Notes: a model not told the origin generated them from the sequence alone. A stretch of 64,000 nucleotides of DNA from Myxococcales bacterium (GCA_019634385.1 JAHQVK010000069.1:22182-86181); one strand, 5' to 3'. Positions 541 through 63,305 are shown, counted from the first letter of the stretch. Numbers and translations: made by a program.

Positions 541-815
541 GGGGGCTTCAATGACACTGATTACCTCGGTTTGGAAGTCAATGTATGCTGGATCAGCGAT
601 GTCGGTGAAGGTGTAAATAGCACTGTGGGGAGTGTGTTAGCCCTTAGTTTGGGGGCTGTATAGGGTAAGAATTTGATAATAAAGACGATATTGACCGAAG
701 ACTCAACCGGATGAGCAACAATATAGTTGATAGGTGTAAACCCGGAATGAGAAAAATAGCTATTCACTCCAAAACCTTAAGAGATGATTGACGTAAGACC
801 GTCATGGACAGCGCT

Positions 816-899
816 TACAGCAAACAAGTGGCCGCGCAGCGGGGCATAGTCCGGCGTGGAAGCAGGAACCTGGGTTCAACCCAAGTGATTTCTGCTGTG
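816..899 (+). repeat. Family A repeat, copy A1 (5' hairpin deleted)
   Basis: tacagcaaacaagtggccgcgcagcggggcatagtccggcgtggaagcaggaacctgggttcaacccaagtgatttctgctgt. Lies just downstream of the parE stop. Confidence 0.85.
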
Positions 900-985
900 T
901 ATACCCGCTCTCATTTCTTTGCTGGAGCAGATCCGCGTACACCTTGTTTCTTTGTGCCTGATTTCGGGAGTGTTTGTCTGGCTCG

Positions 986-2908
986 TCAATAGTCGAGCGC
1001 GTCCGCGTCGGCATCCTCAGCCCGCTCCATAATAAAATGGTATCGAGGTTGTGGGTCTTTTCCCATGAGGGATTGCATGACCACCACACTGTCTTCGTCG
1101 AGTTGCACGCGAAGGGCACGGCGGGTTTTTGGAGCGAGTGTAGTAGTTTTTAATTGTGCTGCGTTCATCTCACCCAATCCCTTGAACCGCATGATGCTCG
1201 GTTTTACGTTCTTAGGCAGTTTTTTGAGGATCCGGTCTTTGTCGCCATCATCGAGCGCCCAGAATACTTCTTTGCCGGCCTCGATTTTGTATAGCGGGGG
1301 TTGAGCGAGGTAGATATGTCCGTGCTCCACTAGCTCTGGCATGTGTTTCATGAAAAATGTCAGCACCAGTGTTGCGATATGATGGCCATCGGGGTCTGCA
1401 TCCATGAGCAAGAAGATTCGTTCATATCGCAGTTTAGAAAGATCGAGTTTCGGGCCAATACCGCAGCCCAAGGCAGAGACAATGTTTCCGATTTCCTTGT
1501 TTTCGAGCACCTTTGACAGACTACTTTGCATGGTATTGATGATCTTGCCCCTAAGAGGAAGCACGGCCTGGGTGCTTCGATCTCGTCCTTGCTTTGCGGT
1601 ACCGCCTGCCGAGTCTCCCTCCACAATAAATAGCTCTGAGTTCGCGGGATTGGTGCTTGAGCAGTCGTGGAGTTTGCCGGGTAGATTGAGTCTATGACTG
1701 ACCGCCGACTTTCGTTGCACCTGTGCGGCCGCCGCCCGTGATGCCTCGCGTGCACGGGCGGCGGTTTCGACTCGATAGCAAATCTGGTCCGCGGTGGTTG
1801 GATTATGGAGCAACCATTGTTCCAGGGCGGGGTACACCATGGACTCCACCAAAGGCTGACACTCTGGGTTGTTCAGTCGGCCTTTGGTTTGGCCCTGAAA
1901 TTGAGGTTCGCGGATATATACAGATAGTATGATGATGACACCTTCACGGATATCTTCTGCCGTGATGGTTACGCCTTTGGGGTTCCGCTTGCTTGCCTTC
2001 ATATAGGCTCGTACAGCTTTAACAACAGCTTGTTTGAGACCCAACTCATGGGATCCACCGTCTCCGGTACGGACCCCGTTGGCATAGCTAAGGATATTCT
2101 CGGTAGTGCCATCGGTCCAGCTCAGAATGACTTCGGTCCGAGGATACACCGAATGTGAAAAGATAAATGGCTCCGGGTGAGTAGGGGTACGTTTGGTTTC
2201 ATTAATCACCTTGGGCAGAAAGTCTTTTAGCCCTCCGGGGTGATGATAGATGGCCGTTTCTTCTTCGGCGATACTTTCGTAGTGTATCGTGACTTCTGGG
2301 TGCAGATAAGCCTTGGCGTCTAAGAGGTCCTTAATTTTCTGGGTATCAAATTTTAGTTTGGGCCCAAAAATCTCGGGGTCGGGGCGAAAGTGGACCGAAG
2401 TGCCGTGCTTACGACTCGCTTTACCCTTTTTAAGCGAGGTGATTGGTAGACCTCGGGCATACTGCTGACTCCATTCGTATCCATCACGTCTGATGACGAG
2501 GTTCATTTCTTCACTCAGAGCGTTGACGACAGAGGAGCCAACCCCGTGGAGTCCTCCAGAAACATCATAAGAGCCCCCATCAAACTTTCCCCCTGCGTGT
2601 AGAGTGGTTAAGATGACTTCTAGGGCTGGCTTTTTGTATTTCTTCATCTTGGCGATGGGGATGCCGCGCCCATCGTCTTCAATAGTTACTCCACGATAGT
2701 TTTCATCTAGGGTGACTTGGATAGTGTGAGCGTGGCCGTTAATGACTTCGTCGATGGAGTTGTCCAGAATCTCTCTTAGGAGATGATGATATCCATGACT
2801 GTCGGTGCCACCGATATACATGCCGGGTCGCACTCGTACTGGCTCGAGACCTTCGAGTACCCGGATGTCTTCACTGTCGTATTTCTTGTTTCGGCTGGTG
2901 TGCGCCAC
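986..2908 (-). CDS. parE: Type IIA DNA topoisomerase subunit B (gyrase/topoisomerase IV family; the short 640-aa form suggests ParE-like)
   Basis: 640-aa ORF with an N-terminal GHKL ATPase region (LEGLEPVRVRPGMYIGG, EILDNSIDE), Toprim motifs (ELFIVEGDSAGG, PDGHHI) and KGLGEM. It overlaps the A-subunit gene by 1 nt. Confidence 0.9.
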   Translation of the reverse strand: MAHTSRNKKYDSEDIRVLEGLEPVRVRPGMYIGGTDSHGYHHLLREILDNSIDEVINGHAHTIQVTLDENYRGVTIEDDGRGIPIAKMKKYKKPALEVILTTLHAGGKFDGGSYDVSGGLHGVGSSVVNALSEEMNLVIRRDGYEWSQQYARGLPITSLKKGKASRKHGTSVHFRPDPEIFGPKLKFDTQKIKDLLDAKAYLHPEVTIHYESIAEEETAIYHHPGGLKDFLPKVINETKRTPTHPEPFIFSHSVYPRTEVILSWTDGTTENILSYANGVRTGDGGSHELGLKQAVVKAVRAYMKASKRNPKGVTITAEDIREGVIIILSVYIREPQFQGQTKGRLNNPECQPLVESMVYPALEQWLLHNPTTADQICYRVETAARAREASRAAAAQVQRKSAVSHRLNLPGKLHDCSSTNPANSELFIVEGDSAGGTAKQGRDRSTQAVLPLRGKIINTMQSSLSKVLENKEIGNIVSALGCGIGPKLDLSKLRYERIFLLMDADPDGHHIATLVLTFFMKHMPELVEHGHIYLAQPPLYKIEAGKEVFWALDDGDKDRILKKLPKNVKPSIMRFKGLGEMNAAQLKTTTLAPKTRRALRVQLDEDSVVVMQSLMGKDPQPRYHFIMERAEDADADALDY

Positions 2909-10347: not shown

Positions 10348-10879
10348 TAAAGATCACGTTGGGCTATTTGACTATGAGGGGAGGGTGCCAGTTGCAACCT
10401 AAATACTCCCTGCGGTGAGATGCTCCGTCATGCGATTTCTGTCAATGGTGGTACAGGCAAAGCTCAAGGCGGCGACATATGTCATCGGTGATGCTCGCAT
10501 TGAGACTTATGATAAACTAAGTATATATCTACATTCTCCTCTATCTCTATGCATGTAGTTCAACGAAGTTTAGTTGGTGAGTCTAAGTTATTCCGAAGAT
10601 TTTCAACTGGTCGAGCGGTGAGGGAGAGTCGATCGAATCTTCAGAGCTTAAACTCAGTTTAGGCAATTCTGTCACAATGGTAGGGATAGATTATATGATG
10701 ATGAGGCTTGTCCTCAGGTCATGGCGAGGCTAGTCAGTAGGCTGATTTTGTGGGTACATATGAGAAAAGAGACAAACAGGGTTTGGGTGAGTGTATATAA
10801 GGAAACGAGATAGATGTGCTTGAAGATGGAGTGGTGTGTTCTATTGTTGTCGCGCGTTGATTCCAAGCGGAGAGCAAAC

Positions 10880-11063
10880 TAGGGCGTGTCTTTACACTAC
10901 GGACCGCGTTCTGACTTGTTTCCCGCGTATGTGAGGGTTCGGTGGTTTCGCCCCTCTTTCGGGCCTTTCGGCCGGGTACGTCCAGTACCCTCCCTCCGAG
11001 GCCGACTCTTCAACTCCGGCTACGGTGTCATCTCCGCAGCCGGAGTTTGAAGATGCGCCCTAA
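10880..11063 (+). repeat. Family B repeat, copy B1
   Basis: tagggcgtgtctttacactacggaccgcgttctgacttgtttcccgcg...ggagtttgaagatgcgcccta. About 185 bp with imperfect terminal inverted repeats and a long internal hairpin. Confidence 0.85.
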
Positions 11064-11085
11064 ATTGGGCGTATTTGAGCCGCTG

Positions 11086-11199
11086 TACAGCAAAGACCAC
11101 TTGAATTGATTCTGTAAGAATCAACAAGTGGTCGCGCAGCGGAGCATAACCCGGTGTGGAAGCAGGATCTTGGGTTGAACCCAAGTGATTTCCGCTGTA
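11086..11199 (+). repeat. Family A repeat, copy A2 (full length, reference copy)
   Basis: TACAGCAAAGACCACTTGAATTGATTCTGTAAGAATCAACAAGTGGTCGCGCAGCGGAGCATAACCCGGTGTGGAAGCAGGATCTTGGGTTGAACCCAAGTGATTTCCGCTGTA. It has three hairpins and terminal inverted TACAGC..GCTGTA. Confidence 0.9.
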
Positions 11200-11252
11200 A
11201 GTAGGTAGGCTTGAGCATGTTGATAGATTTGGATGTGCATTTATTGTTGAAT

Positions 11253-12044
11253 CTAGCTACGGGATAGGAGCAGGGAAATTGCCTCCTTATGAACTATACC
11301 ATTAGACGCAACAAGTCTTGGTGTTTCAACGTGAATGGGGCTTCCGTCATAAGCAGTCAACCGGCCCCCTGCGGCGGCGACCAGAGCCATGCCGGCGGCA
11401 ATATCCCAAGGTTTCACGCCCCCTTCCCAGTAGAGATCGTAAGTACCATCAGCCACCATACATAGGTCTATGGATGCCGAACCGCAGCGCCGGAGACCGC
11501 GAATATTGAGGAGTAATATAGATGTCTCGTGGAGATTGTTATCTGGATTTGTTTTTCGGTCGTATGGAAAACCAGTTGCGCACAGCGCTTGATTGAGGGT
11601 TTTGGTAACTGAGGGTTGGCAGGCGACGCCATTTCGGTGTGCGCCGATTCCAGCGATACCTGTCCACGTGGTACCTAAAATCGGGGCGTGTACAACGCCG
11701 AGTAGAGGCGTTCGGTTGTGGCAAAGGCCAATGGATACCGAAAAAAACGGGTGCCCATGTGAGAAGTTTGTTGTGCCGTCTAGCGGGTCTATGTACCAAG
11801 TCAGGTCTTGGTCTCCTGACAGCTGGGGAAGTTCTTCACCGATAATATTATGGTGGGGGAAAAGGCTATGGAGCCGTTTCTGTACAAGTTGTTCGACTCT
11901 GAGATCATATTCGGTTACAAGATCAATGGCTCCCTTTAGCGTGATGTCGGGTCTTTTACGGTAGCCTTGGTCTAGTAGTTGACCGGCTTCGAGAGCAATC
12001 GCCTTTACGTGGGGTAGAGCTTTTTGGAGTTCGTCTTGGTTCAT
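11253..12044 (-). CDS. suhB: Inositol monophosphatase family protein
   Basis: 263-aa ORF with the IMPase motifs WYIDPLDGTTNF and WDIAAG. Confidence 0.85.
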   Translation of the reverse strand: MNQDELQKALPHVKAIALEAGQLLDQGYRKRPDITLKGAIDLVTEYDLRVEQLVQKRLHSLFPHHNIIGEELPQLSGDQDLTWYIDPLDGTTNFSHGHPFFSVSIGLCHNRTPLLGVVHAPILGTTWTGIAGIGAHRNGVACQPSVTKTLNQALCATGFPYDRKTNPDNNLHETSILLLNIRGLRRCGSASIDLCMVADGTYDLYWEGGVKPWDIAAGMALVAAAGGRLTAYDGSPIHVETPRLVASNGIVHKEAISLLLSRS

Positions 12045-12089
12045 GTGACCCTGATAGCCGCAGAAGCTTAGACTCAGTTCAAGCTATAT

Positions 12090-12282
12090 CTGATGAAACT
12101 GGATTTGAAGCGGCTTCCGGCTATGGAGATGACGCCGTATCCCGCGTGTGTGAAGGGTCGTCCCCGGAGGGAGGGTACTGTATGTACCCGGCTGAGGGGC
12201 CCGAAACCGTGGCGAAACCACCGAGCACTCTCAAATGTGGGAAACAAGTCAGAAAACGGTCCGGAGTGTAAAGACACGCCCT
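12090..12282 (-). repeat. Family B repeat, copy B2 (left end divergent, boundary approximate)
   Basis: ...ggagatgacgccgtatcccgcgtgtgtgaagggtcgtccccggagggagggtact...gggaaacaagtcagaaaacggtccggagtgtaaagacacgccct. Confidence 0.8.
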
Positions 12283-12323
12283 CGCTTCCAATCCTTCGAC
12301 AGTCTGTAGTTTGGTAGTGAGAG

Positions 12324-12435
12324 TACATCAAAGACCCCTTGAATTGATTCTGTAAGAATCAACAAGAGGTCGCGCAGCGGGGCATAGCCCGGCGTAGAAG
12401 CAGGAACTTGGGTTCAGTCCACGGGATTCTGCTGG
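12324..12435 (+). repeat. Family A repeat, copy A3
   Basis: tacatcaaagaccccttgaattgattctgtaagaatcaacaagaggtcgcgcagcggggcatagcccggcgtagaagcaggaacttgggttcagtccacgggattctgctgg. The 3' hairpin is degraded. Confidence 0.85.
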
Positions 12436-12461
12436 ACTACCCGTGGTCGACCAGGTTTGAC

Positions 12462-12503
12462 GGGATAAAAGAGAGGCGGATGTTTCCAAAAGAAGCATCC
12501 GCC
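12462..12503 (-). terminator. Rho-independent terminator downstream of the pectate lyase gene
   Basis: The minus strand reads GGCGGATG-cttcttttggaaa-CATCCGCC followed by TCTCTTTTATCCC: an 8-bp GC-rich stem, 13-nt loop and T-rich tail, 34 nt after the stop codon. Confidence 0.6.
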
Positions 12504-12536: not shown

Positions 12537-15263
12537 CTAATTAACATTACACGAAGCGTATTTGCCTTTTGAGTAGCAAACTTCAGGAACGCCACTGAGA
12601 TCTACGTTCCTAAGGGCGAACCGACTGCTTGAGCAGTCAGAGCGGAACACAGCTTCCTTCACGTTGCTAATGCTCGAGTTTTCGATCGTCCAATTGACTG
12701 GATAGCATCTTCCACCGTTTTCCCTCAGGACCTTACCTGCGTTGGTGATGATCGCGTTTCTCACAACTACTGTTGATCGAGCATTGGACTGGAAGACTTT
12801 GTCTGCTGCGTCTCGGGCAGTGATGTTACTGATAGTTACGTTGGCAGAGGACTTGATCGTGAGGGCATCCTCACAGACATTGGGCCAGTGAATATTGGTG
12901 ATGGTGGCGTTGCCGTACACATGGATGCCGTCACCACGTGGCCCAACGATCACATTTTTCAGCGTTCCGCCGTTTACGCGGAAGACCGGATCCTGCCCTT
13001 CACCCTGAGTGCAATCCCCCCAAGTTGGGGTATAGGTCTTACAGCCGCCATCAAAGGTGCCATTGACCTGGATTGTGCTTGAAACTCGCACGTTACCTTG
13101 GGAGCTTGTACAGGACGAACCACGACCTGAAGGACTGGGACTTGGCTCTGGGTTCGGTTCGGGCGTAGAGTTGTTGAAGTCGCTGCAATCACTTGCAGTT
13201 CCAACACCTGGTCCCGTGACTTCGAGATAGTCGATGTTAGCGAGACCAGAGCCTTGGTTTGCTGTGAGGGTCACGCGCTTGGTGCCGCTACCAAGATTGA
13301 GCGTCACTGCTCCCGTGTTGTTCCAAGAGTCCCAGCCACCAGTCCCGGAGAAGTTTTGGGTTCTAACGTTGCTACCATTGATGCGGACATTACCCGAGCG
13401 ATTGTCGGAGGTACCATTGGCATACTGCCATCGGAAGGTATACGAGCCCGATTGACCGGAAATACTCCAACCAACACTGGCCCCATTCGTGTTGTCGGTA
13501 TTCGCGAAGCCATCGCCGGAAAACCCACCGTTGTTGTTATCGACTGAGCCGTTGACACCACAGAACCCTGGAGAGTTCTCCTGGATTCGGATGGTTGGGT
13601 TGGGGCTTGGTGCTGGAGCGGGCTCCGGTTCTGGAGCGGGCTCTGGATCTGGTTCCGGAGCGGGCTCTGGATCTGGGTTAGGACCCCCACAACTACTGGG
13701 CGTCACGACACCCGGTCCGGATACTTCGAGGTAGTCAATGTTTGCGAGGCCGGAACCTTGATTTGCTACCAGGCGCACCGTCTTGGTTCCCCCGCTGAGA
13801 TTGAGCGTAACTGAAGTTGTTGTCCACGACTCCCATCCCCCGGTCCCCGGGAAATCCTCAGTGGAAAAGTTGCTGCCATTGACTAGAACCTGCCCAGAGC
13901 GGTTTGCGGTGGACCCATTTGCGTACCGCCACCGGAGGGTGTACGCCCCTGAGGGACCAGTAATGCTCCAGGTCACGCCTTGGCCATTGGCGTTTTCAGT
14001 GTTGGCAAAGCCATTCCCAGTGAAATTGCCGTTGTTGTTATCTACCGAACCGTCAACACCACAGAAACCGGAGGCATTCTCTTGAATCCGAGTGGTTGGC
14101 CCGCCGGGGCTTGGATCCGGGTCTATTGGATCTGGTTCCGGAGCGGGCTCTGGATCTGGTTCCGGAGCGGGCTCTGGATCTGGTTCTGCGGGGTTGGAGC
14201 AGTTACCACTCGATCTGCGCATACCGGTATTTGCACCTGCGGTGCTGCGAACAATCGATGGGACACAACTAGCTTGGTCCACTCTATAGCTATAGGGCAC
14301 ATTCACACTGCCGGTCGACCGGACATTTGGACCAGCCGGACGTTGGCTGCTGCTCGATTGCCATTCAACGTTGGAGAAAATATTGCCGCTGACCTCCCAG
14401 GTTCCGTTAGTATCGGTATAGAAGGTTCCAAGCGGATTGCGAGAATCAACAAAGTAGTTACCTTGAACGAGGGCTCGACCGCCAGCGCGGACGTTGATAC
14501 CGGTTTCGTTGATGCCATCATAAAAATTGTTGAAAATATGCCCGGTCCCGTACCGAAAAAGAGGGGTTCGGGTGTTAATGTTTTCCCACCAGTTGTGGTG
14601 GTAAGTTATGTAGTTGTTTTGGTCGCTCTCGCTTGAACCTACCAAACCACCACGGCCAGAATTTCGGAAACGGTTATAAGATATAGTTACATACTGGGTG
14701 TTGTTCTTCATGTCGAGCAACCCGTCGTAACCTTCATTCTCTCCCCCAAAAGCCTCTAGGGTGCAGTGGTCAATCCAGACATTTCGAACATCCTTCTCCA
14801 TCCCGATGGCGTCTCCGCCATTTGAGGTGGTGCCTCCGGATTTCTTAACATCACGAACATGAACATTCTGAATAATGATATTCGAGGAGTCTCGGATATG
14901 AATACCAATCTCATCAAAAACGGCACGACCCGAGCCCCGGATGGTGACGTTACTAACTTCCTTAATCTCAATCACGTTATCAGCGGTGTTGCAGCTATCG
15001 CCACTGACTTTTGAAGTGTTAGATGGGGTAATAGTCCCCGACACCTCGATGATAACCGGGGAGCTGCTCGACGAGCGGTTGCACAGTGCCTGGTGAATCT
15101 GGGTACCAGTACTCGCACGGACAACGGGGCCACCAGCACCGCCATCGGTGCCACCGTAGCCGACGATTTGTGCGTTGGCTTCGCCTGTCATGAAAAGAGC
15201 AAGTGCTACACCGACTGTTGCTTTCAGTCCTACGTAGCCTGCCTTAATATATAAAAATCTCAC
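12537..15263 (-). CDS. Secreted multidomain pectate lyase: PL1 domain, two CBM6/35-like modules, PL3 domain
   Basis: 908-aa ORF with a signal peptide (ALALFMTGEANA). PL1 motifs are VWIDHCT, RSGRGGLVGSSESD and RYGTGHIFNNFY. Two about 130-aa repeats each end in GLANIDYLEV. The C-terminal PL3-type region reads FRVNGGTLKNVIVG..DGIHVYG..NVCEDALTIKS. Domains are joined by PEPAPEPDP linkers. GGAGGA lies upstream of the GTG start. Confidence 0.85.
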   Translation of the reverse strand: MRFLYIKAGYVGLKATVGVALALFMTGEANAQIVGYGGTDGGAGGPVVRASTGTQIHQALCNRSSSSSPVIIEVSGTITPSNTSKVSGDSCNTADNVIEIKEVSNVTIRGSGRAVFDEIGIHIRDSSNIIIQNVHVRDVKKSGGTTSNGGDAIGMEKDVRNVWIDHCTLEAFGGENEGYDGLLDMKNNTQYVTISYNRFRNSGRGGLVGSSESDQNNYITYHHNWWENINTRTPLFRYGTGHIFNNFYDGINETGINVRAGGRALVQGNYFVDSRNPLGTFYTDTNGTWEVSGNIFSNVEWQSSSSQRPAGPNVRSTGSVNVPYSYRVDQASCVPSIVRSTAGANTGMRRSSGNCSNPAEPDPEPAPEPDPEPAPEPDPIDPDPSPGGPTTRIQENASGFCGVDGSVDNNNGNFTGNGFANTENANGQGVTWSITGPSGAYTLRWRYANGSTANRSGQVLVNGSNFSTEDFPGTGGWESWTTTSVTLNLSGGTKTVRLVANQGSGLANIDYLEVSGPGVVTPSSCGGPNPDPEPAPEPDPEPAPEPEPAPAPSPNPTIRIQENSPGFCGVNGSVDNNNGGFSGDGFANTDNTNGASVGWSISGQSGSYTFRWQYANGTSDNRSGNVRINGSNVRTQNFSGTGGWDSWNNTGAVTLNLGSGTKRVTLTANQGSGLANIDYLEVTGPGVGTASDCSDFNNSTPEPNPEPSPSPSGRGSSCTSSQGNVRVSSTIQVNGTFDGGCKTYTPTWGDCTQGEGQDPVFRVNGGTLKNVIVGPRGDGIHVYGNATITNIHWPNVCEDALTIKSSANVTISNITARDAADKVFQSNARSTVVVRNAIITNAGKVLRENGGRCYPVNWTIENSSISNVKEAVFRSDCSSSRFALRNVDLSGVPEVCYSKGKYASCNVN
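13200..14192 (-). repeat. Internal tandem duplication (linker plus CBM unit, two copies) within the pectate lyase gene
   Basis: Unit 1 is about 13704-14192 and unit 2 about 13200-13685. The linker DNA (tggttccggagcgggctctggatctgg) is near-identical in both, and the CBM peptides are clearly paralogous (TRIQENASGFCGVDGSVDNNNG versus TIRIQENSPGFCGVNGSVDNNNG). Confidence 0.8.
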
Positions 15264-15928: not shown

Positions 15929-16043
15929 TAGAGCAGAAATCCCTTGGGTTGAACCCAAGTTCCCGCTTCTCCGCTGGGGCTATGCCCCGCTGCGCGACCC
16001 CTTGCTGATTCTAAGAGAATCAATTCAAGTGGTCTTTGCGGTA
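15929..16043 (-). repeat. Family A repeat, copy A4
   Basis: Reverse orientation: tagagcagaaatcccttgggttgaacccaagttcccgcttct...gcgcgaccccttgctgattctaagagaatcaattcaagtggtctttgcggta. Confidence 0.85.
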
Positions 16044-16191: not shown

Positions 16192-16364
16192 CAGCCGGTT
16201 GATTTGGCCATGTGTGTAGCTGTCGAGCCCGGCTTTTCGTGAAACGCTCTGACGACGAGGCGAGCGTACCCGGCGGTACGTGACCGAGGAGAGACTTTTC
16301 GTGGTCAGGACGTTTCACGGAAAGACCGGCCGACAGATGCGTGCAGGGCTAGATCAACCGGCTG
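16192..16364 (+). mobile_element. Family C MITE-like element, copy C1, flanked by a 4-bp direct duplication TTAG
   Basis: cagccggttgatttggcc...gggctagatcaaccggctg. It has roughly 19-nt terminal inverted repeats, and the whole 173 bp folds as a long hairpin. The flanks read cgTTAG|cagcc...ggctg|TTAGgg. Confidence 0.85.
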
Positions 16365-16518
16365 TTAGGGCCATCATGCCCTCTCGGATGTATCGGTTGT
16401 ATTACTAATTGTAGTGGTCTTTACTGCAGAAGTTGGTTGGCTTGAATCCAAGGACCAGCGACTGCGCTTGCTATTGCTCTGCTGCATCAAGACCACTGGG
16501 CAGGAAACAGCAGGGATA

Positions 16519-16632
16519 TACAGCAGAAATCCCCTGGGTTGAACCCGAGTTCCTGCTTCTTTGCGGGGCAATGCCCCGTTGCGCGACCCCTTGTTGATTC
16601 TTGGAGAATCAATTCAAGTGGTCCTTGCTGTA
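16519..16632 (-). repeat. Family A repeat, copy A5
   Basis: Reverse orientation: tacagcagaaatcccctgggttgaacccgagttcctgcttct...gcgcgaccccttgttgattcttggagaatcaattcaagtggtccttgctgta. Confidence 0.9.
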
Positions 16633-16650
16633 ATCTTGGAGTTTCCAGCC

Positions 16651-16830
16651 ACTAGCAGGCCATCTGAAAAGTGAGTTAGGCGCTTCGCGGGTCCTTTTTC
16701 CGTGAACGTCCGGACCGGCTTCGCCTTTCATCGGTTGCATACGCCCGGTATGCGCCCTCTTCATCCGGAGCGTTCCCCGGAAAAGAACCTTCGCGGATCA
16801 CCCATCCCACTTCTCCGATGGCCAGCTAGT
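16651..16830 (+). repeat. Family D repeat, copy D1
   Basis: actagcaggccatctgaaaagtgagttaggcgcttcgcgggtc...cgcggatcacccatcccacttctccgatggccagctagt. It has terminal inverted repeats, and its interior is related to the core of family C. Confidence 0.8.
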
Positions 16831-16958
16831 TCGCGCTACGTAGCAGCAGGGAGTCCTGGATACGTAGGGGGTAGGCTTTGCTGTGTAGGAAATAGCTCTT
16901 GCTTGTAAACGCCGACGAAATCTATGTGCCGAGTAGCTGGTTCATCGGATTCGTTCGT

Positions 16959-30595: not shown

Positions 30596-30803
30596 AAATA
30601 GCTAATGACTGAAGGTGGCACGACCTTTCCGCCAGCCTTATGGCAGAAAACGGCGCAAAAGCGGGAGCGCCAGGCGATCACAGGCAGGCGTGGCCGGTTT
30701 CGGGCGCATTGCCCGCGCTACAGGACGAGGCCGTTCCTTCCGGACCTGGCGAGTAGCCCAGACCCGCGAAGCGCCTAACTCACTTTTCCGATGGCCTGCT
30801 AGT
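30596..30803 (-). repeat. Family D repeat, copy D2 (one terminus nearly identical to D1 (one mismatch); interior different; far end degenerate)
   Basis: The reverse complement of 30761-30803 is actagcaggccatcggaaaagtgagttaggcgcttcgcgggtc, matching the D1 5' end with one mismatch. The remaining sequence is not alignable to D1 by eye. Confidence 0.65.
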
Positions 30804-30948
30804 GTCCTTTAGTCCGCAAAGGCTACAGAAACAGGCCCCGTTAGACGTGAATCCGTGGTTAGCTGATATTTTTTGGGCTCGGCGATACGCTCGCTGCCCG
30901 AGAGGCTCCCTTCGAGGCGGACCGAAGATCACCTGATATTGAGGCGAA

Positions 30949-31005
30949 TACAGCAGAAATCCCTTGGGTAGAACCCAAATTCCTGCTCTCCGCGCGGCTA
31001 TGCCT
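30949..31005 (-). repeat. Family A repeat, copy A6 (truncated; abuts the stop codon of the RlmN/Cfr paralog)
   Basis: tacagcagaaatcccttgggtagaacccaaattcctgctctccgcgcggctatgcc, after which similarity is lost at the gene's TAG (31009-31011). Confidence 0.7.
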
Positions 31006-35116: not shown

Positions 35117-35229
35117 TAAAGCATAAATCCCTTAGGTTGAACCCAAGTTTCTGCTTCGCAGCGGGGCTATGCCCGGGTGCGCGACCCCTTGTTGATTCTT
35201 ATAGAATCAATTCAAGTGGTGTTTGTTGT
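35117..35229 (-). repeat. Family A repeat, copy A7
   Basis: taaagcataaatcccttaggttgaacccaagtttctgcttcgcagcggggctatgcccgggtgcgcgaccccttgttgattcttatagaatcaattcaagtggtgtttgttgt. Confidence 0.85.
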
Positions 35230-35247
35230 GAACAGGGGAGATGAATC

Positions 35248-35430
35248 TAGGGTGTGTCTTTACTCTTCGGCGTCGGAGATGACGCGGTCTCCCGCGTGTG
35301 TGAGGGTTCGACCCCGGAGGGAAGGTACCGGATGTACTTGGGCGGGGGGCCCGAAAGGGTGGCGAAGCCACCCCCTCACAAACGCAGGATACAAGTCAGA
35401 ACGCGGTCCGGAGGTTAAAGACTCGCCCTA
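35248..35430 (-). repeat. Family B repeat, copy B3
   Basis: tagggtgtgtctttactcttcggcgtcggagatgacgcggtctcccgcgtgtgtgagggttcgaccccggaggg...caagtcagaacgcggtccggaggttaaagactcgcccta. Confidence 0.85.
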
Positions 35431-35611
35431 GAGTGCCTATTTTGATTGCAGAGAACGTCTCAGCTAGGAAGCCTGCCGAGGAGCCGAGCGCGGGATCTAA
35501 CCGTGCGGCGTTGGTATTCAAACCTCTCTCTGGTAGCCGCAGCTTGGTTGGGGACCTTAGCCATAGCTAGACGGTTTCGAGGGCATAGCTAACTGACCGA
35601 CAGATCCCTAA

Positions 35612-35723
35612 TCCAGCAAAGGCCCCTTGTTGATTCTGTAAGAAACACCAAGGGGTCGCGCCGCGGGGCATGGCGTGGCGTAGAAGCAGGAACTTGGGTT
35701 CAACCCAAGTGATTTCTGCTGTG
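35612..35723 (+). repeat. Family A repeat, copy A8
   Basis: tccagcaaaggccccttgttgattctgtaagaaacaccaaggggtcgcgccgcggggcatggcgtggcgtagaagcaggaacttgggttcaacccaagtgatttctgctgtg. Confidence 0.85.
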
Positions 35724-35889: not shown

Positions 35890-35978
35890 TACAGCAAACC
35901 CGGTTGGGTTGAACAGAAGCTCCTGCGGCTATGCATAGCTTTGCCGTGCTTAGCGACCATTTAAGAGTTTGTTTGTGA
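35890..35978 (-). repeat. Family A repeat, copy A9 (degenerate)
   Basis: tacagcaaacccggttgggttgaacagaagctcctgcggctatgcatagc...gcgaccatttaagagtttgtttgtg. Only partial similarity; ends approximate. Confidence 0.5.
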
Positions 35979-36153: not shown

Positions 36154-36225
36154 ATGTGGATTGCACCTAAGGCTAAAAAGTTACGATTTGGTTTTGAAGC
36201 CAAGATGTACGTAGCTACACGATAA
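36154..36225 (+). CDS. pqqA: Coenzyme PQQ precursor peptide PqqA (23 aa)
   Basis: Too short for the ORF track. GGAGG lies 6 nt upstream of the ATG. The peptide MWIAPKAKKLRFGFEAKMYVATR matches the PqqA pattern MWxxPxxxxLRxGFExxMYxxxR, with the cross-linked Glu and Tyr spaced E-x-x-x-Y. Located directly upstream of pqqB. Confidence 0.9.
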   Translation: MWIAPKAKKLRFGFEAKMYVATR

Positions 36226-36382
36226 ATCGGCAAATTATTTGTCATTAGACTGCCGGTCGTAAGGGAGGACATCTTCGGAATGTACATGGCCTATACTCCC
36301 GGCAGTTTTTTTGTGGGCCGGTTACAGCTCAAGATCTTCGCCGTGTTGTGTTGATCTCTATGGAGAGTTAATCAAGAGGCAC

Positions 36383-37297
36383 ATGCAAATTTGTGTTTTG
36401 GGGTCAGCAGCAGGGGGAGGTTTTCCGCAGTGGAATTGCAATTGTGAAAACTGCCAAGGCGTTCGAAGCGGTCGTCTGCGAGCCCAATCGCGAACCCAGT
36501 CTTCTATAGCTGTCAGCGAAGACGGTGAGCATTGGTTACTGATTAATGCTTCACCCGATATTCTCACCCAGTTGGCTGCTTGCCCTCAGCTGCAGCCTCG
36601 TCATGGTCTGCGGGGTACTCCTATCGTTGGCGTCTTGTTGATGGATGCACAGATCGATCACGTTGCGGGGTTGATGATGCTGAGGGAAGGGTGTCCCCTG
36701 GACTTGTACCTTACGCAGGAGGTGAATGAGGCTCTCAACAACCATTTGCCGCTACTGCGGGTGTTGGAACACTGGAACGGTGGTTTTGATACGCAGCTGA
36801 TTCCCGATGCATCCACCTCCTTTGGGGTGGATGCGTTGCCCAACCTTGTTTTTCAGAGGGTGCCGCTAACAAGTAACGCTCCACCGTACTCGCCTCGTCG
36901 TCATCGTCCAGCGCCCGGCGATAGCATTGGGCTCTTTGTTACCGATAGGCGAAGTCAACGTTCGGTGTTGTATGCACCAGGGCTTGGTGAACCACTGGCG
37001 CAAACCATGTCGTTTATGGCGCAGGCGGACGTGATCATGGTAGATGGAACATTTTGGACTGACGACGAAATGGGTAAGACCGGTTTAGGACATCGTACTG
37101 CGCGATCCATGGGTCACCTCCCGGTATCGGGCGAAGGAGGGATTTTGTCCCTCCTTCGCCCGCTCAAAGCGGAAAGAAAGGTACTCATCCACATCAACAA
37201 CACCAATCCCATTCTTGATGAAGATTCTCCGGCTCGCAAAGAGGTGAAAAATCAGGGGATCGAAGTAGCATTCGACGGCATGATGATCGAGGTGTGA
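36383..37297 (+). CDS. pqqB: PQQ biosynthesis protein B (metallo-beta-lactamase fold)
   Basis: MQICVLGSAAGGGFPQWNCNCENCQ is the conserved PqqB N-terminus. AAGAGG lies 5 nt before ATG 36383; the track ORF starts earlier at a TTG. Confidence 0.9.
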   Translation: MQICVLGSAAGGGFPQWNCNCENCQGVRSGRLRAQSRTQSSIAVSEDGEHWLLINASPDILTQLAACPQLQPRHGLRGTPIVGVLLMDAQIDHVAGLMMLREGCPLDLYLTQEVNEALNNHLPLLRVLEHWNGGFDTQLIPDASTSFGVDALPNLVFQRVPLTSNAPPYSPRRHRPAPGDSIGLFVTDRRSQRSVLYAPGLGEPLAQTMSFMAQADVIMVDGTFWTDDEMGKTGLGHRTARSMGHLPVSGEGGILSLLRPLKAERKVLIHINNTNPILDEDSPARKEVKNQGIEVAFDGMMIEV

Positions 37298-37369
37298 GCA
37301 TGGGTGGCTATACGCTTAGGTGTTTTGGTGGGGCTAGAGAGTTTCGATTCTCGTCAAGGAGTACGCGGC

Positions 37370-37654
37370 ATGAGTATTTACTTACATTCAATCATCACCC
37401 GGAATTCCATGTATCGGTTCCAGTGGGAAGAGACCCAAGGTTGCCATGTGTTATTATACCCAGAGGGTTTGGTGCAACTTAATCAGACGGCAGCTACCGT
37501 GCTCGAGTTGTGTGGGGAGGAAACGACGGCCGCGGCGTTAATCGAAACCCTCCAGGAACGATATCCTCAGGCTGATACCTTGGTTGAAGATGTGATGAGC
37601 TTTCTCCACGAGGCTCGAGACGAAAACTGGATCGTGGTCCGGGATACGGAGTGA
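37370..37654 (+). CDS. pqqD: PQQ biosynthesis peptide chaperone PqqD
   Basis: YRFQWEETQGCHVLLYPEGLVQLNQTAATVLELCGEE fits the PqqD pattern. The start is uncertain (ATG 37370 chosen; the track ORF starts at GTG 37304). Confidence 0.8.
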   Translation: MSIYLHSIITRNSMYRFQWEETQGCHVLLYPEGLVQLNQTAATVLELCGEETTAAALIETLQERYPQADTLVEDVMSFLHEARDENWIVVRDTE

Positions 37655-37657
37655 ACA

Positions 37658-38806
37658 ATGATGAGCGAAGAATCCGGCGTCAGCGGACCCCTGTGGTTGC
37701 TGGCCGAATTGACCTACCGGTGCCCCCTGCAATGTCCGTATTGCTCAAATCCTAGTAACTACGAGGAGTCGCTGAGCCACGAGCTAACCACCGAAGAGTG
37801 GATAAGTGCGCTGCGGCAGGCGCGAGCTATGGGAGCGGTCCAACTAGGCTTATCGGGAGGTGAGCCCTGTCTACGTACCGATTTGGAGGAAATTGTTGCT
37901 GAAGCCCATAAGTTAGGTTTTTATACCAATCTCATTACTTCCGCCTATAATTTATCTTCCGAGCGAATTAGTAATCTCAAAGAGGCGGGTTTAGACCATA
38001 TCCAAGTTAGTATTCAGGGGGCGGATAAGCGTACTAATGACCTGTTGGCGGGTACTGCATGCTTCGATCGGAAAATTGCTGCTCTCTATCATATAAAAGA
38101 GCAAGGTTACCCACTTGTATTTAACTTTGTTGTTCATCGATTTAATATTCATCAAGTTTGGGACTTACTTACCTTGGCGAATATGGTTGAGGCAGATTTT
38201 GTAGAAGTTGCTAACTGTCAGTACCACGGCTTTGCTTTTCTTAATAAGGAAGCACTACTTCCGACCCCCTTGCAGATACGACAGGCGGAAGAAGAGGTGG
38301 CTCGCTTCCGCTCCCAACTAAGCCGAAAAATGGAGATCTTCTTTGTGGTACCGGACTACTTCGAAGAGCACATAAGTCCGTGCGTCAATGGCTGGGGGAC
38401 CACGATGGTCAATGTATCACCAAACGGTCGTGTGTTGCCTTGTCATGGTGCGGGTGAGATGAAGCATCTTCCCATACCGAACATTCGGGAACAGAGCCTC
38501 CAGGATATCTGGTATCACTCCACATTGTTCAATCAATATCGAGGCACTTCATGGATGAAGGAGCCATGTGCTTCTTGCCCGGAGAAAGAAAAGGACTTTG
38601 GGGGGTGCCGGTGCCAAGCGCTGGCATGGACACAGGATGCTGCAAATACAGATCCGTGTTGCCCTAAGTCTCCTCATCACGGCTTGATCGAGAAGCTGGT
38701 AGACCCAGCCAGTCAACGTCAACCATTGGTACAGTTACGGAACACCCGGGGCACGAAGATGGAGTTTGGTGAGCTAGTGTTTAGAGGCGCAGCAAAGGCC
38801 ACTTGA
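37658..38806 (+). CDS. pqqE: PQQ biosynthesis radical-SAM/SPASM enzyme PqqE
   Basis: LLAELTYRCPLQCPYCSNP (CxxxCxxC) plus a C-terminal Cys-rich SPASM region (CASCPEKEKDFGGCRCQA). The last codons and the TGA stop lie inside a family-A repeat. Confidence 0.9.
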   Translation: MMSEESGVSGPLWLLAELTYRCPLQCPYCSNPSNYEESLSHELTTEEWISALRQARAMGAVQLGLSGGEPCLRTDLEEIVAEAHKLGFYTNLITSAYNLSSERISNLKEAGLDHIQVSIQGADKRTNDLLAGTACFDRKIAALYHIKEQGYPLVFNFVVHRFNIHQVWDLLTLANMVEADFVEVANCQYHGFAFLNKEALLPTPLQIRQAEEEVARFRSQLSRKMEIFFVVPDYFEEHISPCVNGWGTTMVNVSPNGRVLPCHGAGEMKHLPIPNIREQSLQDIWYHSTLFNQYRGTSWMKEPCASCPEKEKDFGGCRCQALAWTQDAANTDPCCPKSPHHGLIEKLVDPASQRQPLVQLRNTRGTKMEFGELVFRGAAKAT

Positions 38807-38890
38807 ATTGATTCTGTAAGAATCAACAAGTGGCCCATAGCCCGGCGTAGAAGCAGGAACTTCGGTTCAACCCAAGTGATTTCTGCTGTA
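38788..38890 (+). repeat. Family A repeat, copy A10 (fills the pqqE-pqqC junction; contains the pqqE stop)
   Basis: cgcagcaaaggccacttgaattgattctgtaagaatcaacaagtggcccatagcccggcgtagaagcaggaacttcggttcaacccaagtgatttctgctgta. The TGA of pqqE is the 'cacTTGAatt' TGA at 38804-38806. There is a small internal deletion relative to the consensus. Confidence 0.9.
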
Positions 38891-38902
38891 TCGGATTAAG
38901 AT

Positions 38903-39625
38903 ATGAACAACGAGACCAGCGCGTGGACCCGCAGTGAGTTTGAACAACAACTACGAGGAATGGGGCGATATTATCACATTTATCACCCGTTTCATCGTCG
39001 TATGAACTCTGGAAACTGTACCCGTGAGGAGATACAATGTTGGGTGGCGAATAGGTATTATTATCAGCGATCAATTCCCATCAAAGACGCTGCGATTATG
39101 GCCAATTGTGATGATCCCGCAACCCGGCGGTTGTGGGTGCAGCGTATTCTTGATCATGATGGAACCACGGACATGTTGGGTGGTCTTGAGGCCTGGGTAC
39201 GTCTCGGCGAGGCGGTGGGCCTTTTACGGAGCGATCTAGTTGAGAATAGATATTTGCTCCCCGGCGTTCAATTTGCTTGTGATGCTTATGTCAATTTCGC
39301 TCGCCGCGCTACTTGGCAGGAAGCGGCATGTTCATCCCTGACGGAGTTATTTGCTCCCCGGATTCATCAACAGCGTTTGGAGGCTTGGCCTCAGTTTTAC
39401 CCGTGGATAGAACTAGAGGGGTATACATACTTCCAAAAGCGTCTGTCTGAAGCTCGCAGGGATGTCGAACATGGCTTGTCCGTTACCCTTGACTATTTTT
39501 GTACTCGGGCAGAGCAGGAGAAGGCACTGGATATCTTACGCTTTAAGCTTCAAGTATTATGGTCTATGCTGGATGCTATGCAGATGGCGACAGAATATGG
39601 TCATCCGCCGTTTTATAATTGTTAG
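38903..39625 (+). CDS. pqqC: Pyrroloquinoline-quinone synthase PqqC
   Basis: 240-aa ORF with [45 protein letters not shown], the conserved PqqC core. Confidence 0.9.
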
Positions 39626-39724: not shown

Positions 39725-39839
39725 TACAGCAAAGACCCCTTGAATTGCTTCTGTAAGAATTACCAAGTGGTCGCGCAGGGGGCATAGCCCCCAACGGAGA
39801 AGCAGGAACTTGGGTTCAACCCAAGTGATTTCTGCTATA
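39725..39839 (+). repeat. Family A repeat, copy A11
   Basis: tacagcaaagaccccttgaattgcttctgtaagaattaccaagtggtcgcgcagggggcatagcccccaacggagaagcaggaacttgggttcaacccaagtgatttctgctata. Lies between the convergent pqqC and cupin genes. Confidence 0.9.
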
Positions 39840-44591: not shown

Positions 44592-44771
44592 TAGGGCGTT
44601 TCTTTAACCTCCGGACCGCGTTCTAACTTGTTTCCCCCATGTGTGAGGGGTCGGTGGCTTCGACACCCTTTCGGGCCCCTCGGCCCGGTACATCCAGCCT
44701 CCCTCCGGGGCTGACCACTCACAAACACGGGCTATGCATCTACGTGGCCGGAGTTTAAAGAGATGGCCGAG
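44592..44771 (+). repeat. Family B repeat, copy B4
   Basis: tagggcgtttctttaacctccggaccgcgttctaacttgtttccccc...ggccggagtttaaagagatggccg. Confidence 0.8.
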
Positions 44772-44873
44772 AAGCTTGTGCAGTGTCTTACGGGTGTGAA
44801 TAGTGTGGAGGGCGTGTTGCTGAAGTCGGTAGGGAACTATCGTTGAGGGCCCGAAGTGCCAGAATGTTCGGGT

Positions 44874-45107
44874 TACAGCAAAGACCCCTTGCTGATTCTT
44901 ACAGAGTCCATTCAACAGCCTGTTGATTTAGCCCTGTGTATAGCTATCGAGCCAGGCTTTTCGTGAAACGTTCTGACGACGAGGCGAGCGTACCTGGCGG
45001 TACGCGACCGAGGAGAGACTTTTTGTGGTCAGGATGTTTCACGGAAAGACCGGCCGATAGATGCCTGCAGGGCTAGATCAACAGGCTGTCAAGTGGTCTT
45101 TGCTGTA
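44874..45107. repeat. Family A-derived mini-palindrome (A12), split by insertion of family C copy C2
   Basis: The left part, 44874-44915, is tacagcaaagaccccttgctgattcttacagagtccattcaa. The right part, 45089-45107, is tcaagtggtctttgctgta. Joined with one tcaa removed, they restore the A terminal hairpin ..attcaagtggtctttgctgta. Confidence 0.75.
44916..45088 (+). mobile_element. Family C MITE-like element, copy C2, flanked by a 4-bp direct duplication TCAA, inserted in an A-type palindrome
   Basis: cagcctgttgatttagccc...gggctagatcaacaggctg, closely similar to C1 over its full length. Flanks are atTCAA|cagcc...ggctg|TCAAgtgg. It contains the TAG stop of the GNAT gene (45073-45075). Confidence 0.85.
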
Positions 45108-54478: not shown

Positions 54479-54593
54479 GTGCAGTAAAGACCCCTTGAAT
54501 GGATTCTGTAAGAATCAACAAGTGGTCCGCAGTTGGGGCATAGCCCGGCGTAGAGGCAGGAACTTGGGTTCAATCCAAGTGATTTCTGCTGTA
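54479..54593 (+). repeat. Family A repeat, copy A13
   Basis: gtgcagtaaagaccccttgaatggattctgtaagaatcaacaagtggtccgcagttggggcatagcccggcgtagaggcaggaacttgggttcaatccaagtgatttctgctgta. Lies between two convergent genes. Confidence 0.9.
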
Positions 54594-63168: not shown

Positions 63169-63305
63169 TGGGGCGTGTCTTCAACTCCTGACCGTGTCCT
63201 GACTCGTGCCTCACATATCCGGTGCCCTCCCCCACCGGGGCCGACTGTTCACACTCGCGGGCTACGGCGTCATCTCCGCAGCCGGAGTGTGAAGACACGC
63301 CTTAG
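63169..63305 (+). repeat. Family B repeat, copy B5 (shorter, internal deletion)
   Basis: tggggcgtgtcttcaactcctgaccgtgtcctgactcgtgcc...gctacggcgtcatctccgcagccggagtgtgaagacacgccttag. Sits at the boundary between rlmN and the GC-rich dehydrogenase gene. Confidence 0.8.

Follow-up and report, generated by a model that had tools for sequence, protein, structure and literature searches.

An operational definition of bacterial MITEs was given by Delihas (2008, PMC2229807), and two described families come closest to the repeat studied here. The Correia/NEMIS elements of Neisseria are about 100-155 bp long, have TA at both tips and carry inverted repeats of about 26 nt at their termini. They are intergenic, occur in both orientations, often near gene ends, and give a stem-loop transcript; they reach hundreds of copies and have no cognate transposase known (PMC2229807 and general knowledge). 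RUP of pneumococcus, mobilised by IS630-Spn1, is a non-coding intergenic element of about 107 bp with TA target sites that tends to land beside or inside other mobile elements (PMC2229807). Two further groups share some of these features. ERIC/RU-1 and the Rickettsia palindromic elements (RPE) are palindromic repeats of intergenic DNA, about 105-150 bp in length, which are able to become fused to ORF ends (PMC2229807). REP/BIME sequences are very abundant extragenic palindromes with a species-specific sequence, a conserved hairpin and a GTAG-like core motif; individual REPs are single hairpins of 20-40 nt that lack inverted termini and are often found in alternating arrays.

The repeat described here, family A, is most likely a new family of this known kind and is nearest in behaviour to Correia and RUP. 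It resembles Correia in size, inverted termini, TA tips, intergenic placement in both orientations near gene ends and stem-loop structure, but the two occur in different phyla, Neisseria on one side and Myxococcota on the other. A single long hairpin accounts for essentially the whole Correia element, whose long form has an IHF site, whereas family A consists of three separate hairpins, two of which are formed from the terminal repeats. No promoter-like hexamers were detected in the family A copies, unlike the outward promoters of Correia. Family A is not known to share sequence similarity with the Correia terminal repeat. RUP and family A are likewise unrelated in sequence, and RUP has a known parent IS with matching terminal repeats while none was found for family A. 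Like RUP, family A keeps company with other mobile elements: its copies lie 17-41 nt from elements of a second family, B, and adjoin elements of two others, D and E. The likeness to ERIC and RPE is that family A also forms an ORF end, that of pqqE, to which it contributes the five C-terminal residues and the stop codon; it differs from these single long imperfect palindromes by its three hairpins, and from RPEs, which often lie in frame inside genes, by never occurring in a gene body within the window (the whole 64-kb stretch of DNA analysed). Family A does not belong with the RAYT-associated REP/BIME sequences, given its 114 bp, its inverted termini and three hairpins, the lack of arrays and the lack of a Y1 gene among the ORFs scanned. 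A literature search returned neither a description of family A nor a paper on myxobacterial MITEs.

Family A occupies 14 sites on both strands of the window, comprising nine full copies, one copy without its 5' hairpin, three fragments and one composite (Table 1). The same list was obtained with BLASTN, with an nhmmer profile and with a covariance model. The preliminary description had reported 13 copies or fragments in both orientations; all of these sites are real, and the diverged partial copy at 16420-16497 (-), which it had missed, is new. The 114-mer that it gave as the sequence at 11086-11199 is in fact the family consensus, from which that copy differs at 7 positions. Chance does not account for the hairpin sequences: the 16-mer of the 5' hairpin (CCACTTGAATTGATTC) has 8 matches in the window at no more than 3 mismatches, against 0.53 expected, and the 17-mer of the 3' hairpin has 23 strand-hits where 0.15 are expected. 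With a length of 103-115 bp, typically about 114 bp, the element is well within the size of bacterial MITEs (<300 bp), and it has no coding capacity of its own, the ORFs that overlap its copies differing in strand and frame from one copy to the next.

Table 1. Family A sites and neighbouring elements of families B, D and E in the window.
Feature	Position	Strand	Score (bits)	Context
Family A, 5' hairpin deleted (TACAGCAAA/CAAGTGG...)	816..899	+	67	87 nt 3' of parE-like stop, 5' of fatty-acid desaturase gene
Family A, full copy (reported one)	11086..11199	+	126	54 nt 3' of inositol-monophosphatase-family stop; family B element 23 nt away
Family A, full copy	12324..12437	+		100 nt 3' of stop of 908-aa gene; family B element 41 nt away
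Family A, full copy	15929..16043	-	127	1.7-kb spacer between 908-aa gene and 191-aa TolR-like gene
Family A, diverged incomplete copy (central portion plus 3' hairpin)	16420..16497	-
Family A, full copy	16519..16632	-	128	family E palindromic element directly after
Family A, 3' half	30949..31005	-	41	ends 4 nt from stop of RlmN-like gene
Family A, full copy	35117..35230	-		spacer between pectinesterase-like gene and pqqA/B; family B element 17 nt away
Family A, full copy	35612..35723	+		same spacer, orientation opposite to the copy at 35117
Family A, diverged partial copy (3' part)	35894..35962	-		same spacer
Family A, 12 nt of central hairpin deleted	38788..38890	+		between pqqE and pqqC
Family A, full copy	39725..39839	+		between convergent pqqC and cupin genes
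Composite, solo family A 5'-hairpin module split by family D element	44874..45107	+
Family A, full copy	54479..54593	+	123	between convergent genes; starts 2 nt after response-regulator stop, ends 20 nt before stop of opposing gene
Family B	10879-11062	+
Family B	12116-12282	-
Family B	35247-35431	-
Family B	44592-44761	+
Family B, partial	63217-63305
Family D	16192-16365			TTAG/TTAG on flanks
Family D	44916-45089			in loop of solo family A 5' hairpin
Family E	16650-16840			adjoins a family A copy
Family E	about 30700-30810	-		adjoins a family A copy

The terminal inverted repeats of family A are about 27 nt long and start with TACAGCAAAGACCACTTG..., with TACAGCARAGACC...GGTYTYTGCTGTA as the pair of termini. 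The 5' end of the consensus, TACAGCAAAGACCACTTGAATTGATTC, and the reverse complement of its 3' end, TACAGCAGAAATCACTTGGGTTGAACC, match at 20/27 positions, which bears out the inverted ends noted at the outset. Their outermost 9-13 nt take no part in the hairpins; further in, each terminal repeat supplies the outer arm of the 5' or of the 3' hairpin. TA, first pointed out on both sides of several copies, is present at both tips of most of them; deviations are mainly single substitutions (TC, TG), except that the right tip is GA in the copy at 12324 and the left tip CG in that at 38788. Direct repeats longer than TA do not flank the copies. The consensus folds into three hairpins, as RNA with -53.3 kcal/mol against -28.4 +/- 3.3 for shuffled sequences (z = -7.6) and, folded as DNA, with z = -7.2. 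The assertion that every copy has the three hairpins stands for the consensus and not for the copies at 816, devoid of the 5' hairpin, and at 38788, shortened by 12 nt in the centre.

Such a strong fold raises the hypothesis that family A is a structured RNA selected by the host as a 3'-UTR stabiliser, RNase III target or terminator, which would have spread through its usefulness. RNase III processing is known for Correia elements (PMC2229807). We regard this hypothesis as quite unlikely, and the structured RNA or terminator that the preliminary description had kept as a second option is unsupported as the primary nature of family A, with no Rfam match, mixed orientation, little covariation and a weak U-tail. 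A match to an annotated ncRNA would have spoken against a mobile element; Rfam 15 gave none, either over the whole window at gathering thresholds or at E <= 1 in region 10800-12500. The lax terminator filter is passed by only two copies, through the 3' hairpin followed by GATTTCT (tail GATTTCTGCT), and their U-tail is poor. Terminator-like sites in the scanned region number 19 against 16.6 expected from shuffles, i.e. there is no enrichment. Family A thus lacks the attributes of an intrinsic terminator, a GC-rich hairpin with a U-tract oriented with the upstream gene.

ParE, ParC, PqqA-E and other proteins assign the host of the window to an uncultured Myxococcota lineage with a GC content of about 52%. 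The best named relatives of its ParE are labelled 'MAG: Myxococcota/Myxococcales/Deltaproteobacteria bacterium', and the closest GTDB representative has only 71% ParE identity. Intergenic DNA makes up 14.7% of the window, yet 14/14 family A sites are intergenic; they are spread over 10 spacers and account for 14.5% of the intergenic DNA. The copies occupy co-directional or convergent spacers at a distance of 0-100 nt from a stop codon, in keeping with the preliminary description, and none is in a divergent promoter spacer. Proximity to stop codons is what a 3'-end RNA module would show; however, about 6 copies are sense and about 5 antisense relative to the upstream gene, two or three copies of opposite orientation share the spacer in several cases, and a terminator inside the pqq operon, at the pqqE/pqqC junction occupied by one copy, would be deleterious. 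In line with the earlier reading, no transposase of the window was found with NCBIfam or Pfam among the about 50 ORFs scanned, all of which are housekeeping or of unknown function.

Individual copies are degraded. They have 86-94% identity to the consensus and about 80% to each other, which indicates that they are fairly old and gives no sign of current activity. Within the genome a compensatory change is found in 1/34 predicted pairs, the others being invariant or broken on one side only; a single position of the 5' stem reads A:T, C:G, A.G, C.T and C.A across copies. This almost complete lack of compensation argues further against a host-selected RNA. Between lineages the picture of the 3' hairpin is the opposite, so that the covariation proposed as a check on the stems was found there and hardly at all within the genome. 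Double compensatory changes affect 4/8 pairs of the inner stem (e.g., CTTGGGT/ACCCAAG to CTTGAGC/GCTCAAG to CTTGAAC/GTTCAAG), 10 cells have changed on both sides against 4.2 +/- 1.6 in shuffled data (0/500 shuffles as high), and 87% of cells are paired against 32-53% when the partners are slid. Preservation of a hairpin by compensatory changes would suit an RNA function. The combined pattern reads as source elements that have to keep their hairpins and whose copies then decay.

The age of the copies, several of them truncated or internally deleted, together with the failure to find a transposase, is also consistent with dead, immobile relics of an ancient expansion, spread or homogenised only by recombination or gene conversion. 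We consider this very unlikely, since every related lineage carries a distinct variant whose hairpins are intact, which implies that evolving source copies were amplified anew once the lineages had separated. These relatives were reached only by exact-protein look-ups. L003, a 6.05-Mb ENA contig with 52% GC and a ParE 83% identical to that of the window, carries 3 diverged family A homologues in 22 kb. They have the family A architecture and TA-CAGC termini, and the best one has TA at both tips; the core GGTCGCRCAGYGRGSCRTAG with its C(A/G)TAG motifs is conserved between them and family A of the window. Density is about 1 copy per 5 kb in the window and about 1 per 7 kb in L003; hundreds of copies per genome would be an extrapolation from these figures. 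Two small called genes of L003 (53 and 41 aa; 14114-14275 and 523-648) overlap or abut its family A homologues and are probably annotation artefacts of the repeat.

The Logan contig L002, whose ParE is 87% identical, has no family A copy within 17 kb. Its end reads TA-CAGCGATAGTCAGTTGAACTGAT, a family A-like terminus that matches the 5' terminus of the window's family at 18/25 positions. Two contigs of the same strain in Logan, assembled from 31-mers and 100% and 99.94% identical to the window, stop inside family A copies, the mark of a multi-copy sequence: L001 ends 31 nt into the copy at 11086..11199 and L090 ends 30 nt into that at 39725..39839. Since short-read assemblies break at the repeat, its absence from the interior of short-read contigs is weak evidence. 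Searches with nhmmer, the covariance model and fuzzy terminal-repeat patterns found no copies in relatives with 77-80% ParE identity, nor in 80 ParE-anchored loci of other Myxococcota and of Acidobacteriota (ParE <= 71%, GC 61-67%). Exact and degenerate pattern scans for the 3' hairpin gave 0 matches in GTDB representative genomes and 0 in JGI metagenome contigs, collections from which the lineage is absent. BLAST found no match in plasmid and phage collections, and a single match of a viral contig to the 5' terminus was put down to chance after the covariance model did not confirm it. The spacers of L002 and L003 cannot be aligned with those of the window; that between parE and the desaturase gene is 445 bp long in the window and 287 bp in L003, with divergence too great to align.

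An insertion polymorphism, the check that the preliminary description had proposed, appears demonstrable at a single site, the pqqE/pqqC junction, from gene coordinates and protein tails rather than from DNA. The closest relative that carries pqq genes has a PqqC 84% identical and a PqqE C-terminus 77% identical to those of the window. Its pqqE (33-425) and pqqC (422-1153) overlap by 4 nt, whereas the two genes of the window are separated by 96 nt, with the 103-nt family A copy 38788-38890 between them. PqqE of the relative ends in FDELLFRGQP-stop and that of the window in FGELVFRG-AAKAT-stop. The homology ends at the Gly codon 38786-38788, one nucleotide short of the family A copy, which encodes the last five residues (AAKAT) and the stop of the window's protein. 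A precise deletion in the relative, as the reading of family A as immobile relics would have it, is much less parsimonious than an insertion, because it would have to remove the element exactly and recreate the 4-nt overlap. Restoring the relative's ATGA stop/start overlap requires the removal of 103 nt including both flanking dinucleotides, so that TA would be the element's own and not a duplication; we give little weight to this reconstruction since the PqqE tail is diverged, with indels. An exact look-up of the window's own PqqC protein returned no record.

In the pqq operon itself (36154-39625), pqqA (MWIAPKAKKLRFGFEAKMYVATR, about 36154-36225) is followed by B, D, E and C, an unusual gene order. 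Upstream of the operon there are three family A copies, within it one and downstream of it another. With the exception of one close relative, the nearest PqqC homologues are about 70% identical and several of them are labelled Gammaproteobacteria, which suggests that the operon may have been acquired horizontally.

We favour the hypothesis that family A is a MITE, probably a non-coding DNA transposon remnant of about 114 bp mobilised by a transposase whose gene is located elsewhere in the genome. The family displays what the definition of bacterial MITEs lists: it is small and non-coding, with terminal inverted repeats, TA tips, stem-loops and dispersed intergenic copies in both orientations, and presence/absence is seen at one site, the pqqE/pqqC junction. 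The non-autonomous MITE or Correia-like family that the preliminary description had proposed is the best fit to the termini, TA tips, placement, decay, pqqE/pqqC polymorphism and lineage variants. Movement would be by cut-and-paste, through a trans-acting transposase recognising the terminal repeats of about 27 nt (TA-CAGCAAAGACCACTTGAATTGA... and their imperfect 3' mirror). Insertion would most likely occur at TA dinucleotides, which would then be duplicated, as for IS630/Tc1-mariner transposases; it is the TA-CAG... termini that suggest an IS630/Tc1-like enzyme. Only insertions in gene-free spacers, mostly just 3' of stop codons, would survive selection. The copies would thereafter decay neutrally while the active source element keeps its hairpins, leaving lineages with different, equally well-folded variants. 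Against this reading are the CG at the left tip of the copy at 38788 and the fact that neither a transposase nor a longer parent element with family A termini was found in the window or in about 1.4 Mb of related loci. The conservation of the hairpins across lineages could also reflect a function at the level of the host, and a secondary effect of family A on mRNA 3' ends is possible.

The structure of the ends also invites comparison with elements moved as single-stranded DNA by an HUH/Y1 transposase. Family A would then be a REP/RAYT-like element or a palindrome-associated (PATE) derivative of IS200/IS605; its terminal hairpins would be what the enzyme recognises, and the TA of the left flank and that of the right end would be cleavage motifs instead of a duplication. 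Both of its ends are stable hairpins of which the structure, not the sequence, is kept between lineages, the core with its C(A/G)TAG motifs persists in the window and in L003, and the density is very high. A solo-hairpin module exists at 44874-45107, and the pqqE/pqqC reconstruction without the two dinucleotides would fit a mechanism free of target duplication. However, the outer 9-13 nt are genuine inverted repeats beyond the hairpins, of a kind absent from IS200/IS605 and REP elements; 114 bp with three hairpins far exceeds the size of REPs; the scan of the window's ORFs revealed no Y1/RAYT gene; and family A does not form BIME-like alternating arrays. We therefore find this origin improbable.

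At least three further MITE-like families share the spacers of family A. Of the intergenic DNA, families A, B and D make up about 27%, and A with its companions B, D and E fills roughly a quarter. Family B is about 185 nt long with inverted termini of about 24 nt, (C)TA-GGGCGTGTCTTTAAACTCCGG...CCGGAGTTTAAAGACACGCCC-TA(G), and has no Rfam match. Three of its four full copies are 17-41 nt from a family A copy, one of the three in inverted relative orientation. We rejected the idea that A and B form one composite of about 320 bp (10879-11199 vs 35431-35117, 75% match), as the sequence that separates the two shows no conservation and as B has the opposite relative orientation to A at 12116-12437. 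A family B-like fragment is also present 3' of parE in L002 (12009-12056).

Family D is a palindromic element of 174 bp, CAGCCGGTTGAT...ATCAACCGGCTG, with two copies 92% identical. The second copy explains the site 44874/45089, which had been listed as a copy of family A and is not a split standard copy but a solo 5'-hairpin module with the D element in its loop. The module (44874-44915 and 45090-45107; TACAGCAAAGACC...GGTCTTTGCTGTA) has perfect inverted termini of 18 nt (18/18). The alternative of a 234-bp family A variant with new internal sequence was rejected, the interior being an independent repeat also found at 16192-16365. In comparison with intact A hairpins, which serve as a paralogous 'empty site', the nested element is bordered by a duplication of TCAA. 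This nested insertion implies a 4-bp target duplication for family D and shows that small mobile elements actively land in these spacers. Family E is a long palindrome of about 185 nt, CTAG-CAGGCCATCTG..., also written CTAG-CAGGCCATCTGAAAAGTGAGTTAGGCGCTTCGCGGG...CTGGCCATC..-CTAG, whose two copies share a 44-nt stretch with 98% identity.

These neighbours open the prospect that the lineage was colonised by a whole guild of small elements with hairpin ends, at least four in number, with terminal hairpins rather than sequences being recognised by some enzyme or co-opted as 3'-end RNA structures. Its members would be A, B (TA-GGGCG termini) and the pair D and E, both of which have CAG termini and 4-bp repeats on their flanks. 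Recognition of hairpins would explain their compensatory upkeep between lineages while single copies decay; we nevertheless consider this unlikely. Under the preferred reading of family A as a MITE, no new kind of biology is called for unless the mobilising enzyme proves unusual. The family exemplifies the upkeep of terminal hairpins through compensatory evolution, and with it a deep-branching uncultured myxobacterial group joins the bacteria known for dense MITE populations.

Repeats A, B, D and E matter for annotation and assembly, as they break short-read assemblies of this lineage, spawn spurious ORFs and alter gene ends, the last exemplified by the C-terminus of PqqE and the coupling of pqqE to pqqC. 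Four ORFs of 84-105 aa lie wholly or mostly on repeats A and B, at 12074-12331 (-), 35177-35431 (+), 44604-44915 (-) and 802-1119 (-); their strands and frames are inconsistent and they are probably spurious gene calls. Repetition of another sort is found in the 908-aa ORF at 12537-15263 (-), whose product has no family match. At 13204-14183 this ORF contains an internal duplication of about 480 nt, 72% identical, and tandem units of 12 nt (GGATCTGGTTCCGGAGCGGGCTCT...), which, inferred from the DNA, apparently encode low-complexity repeats rich in Pro, Glu, Ala and Ser.
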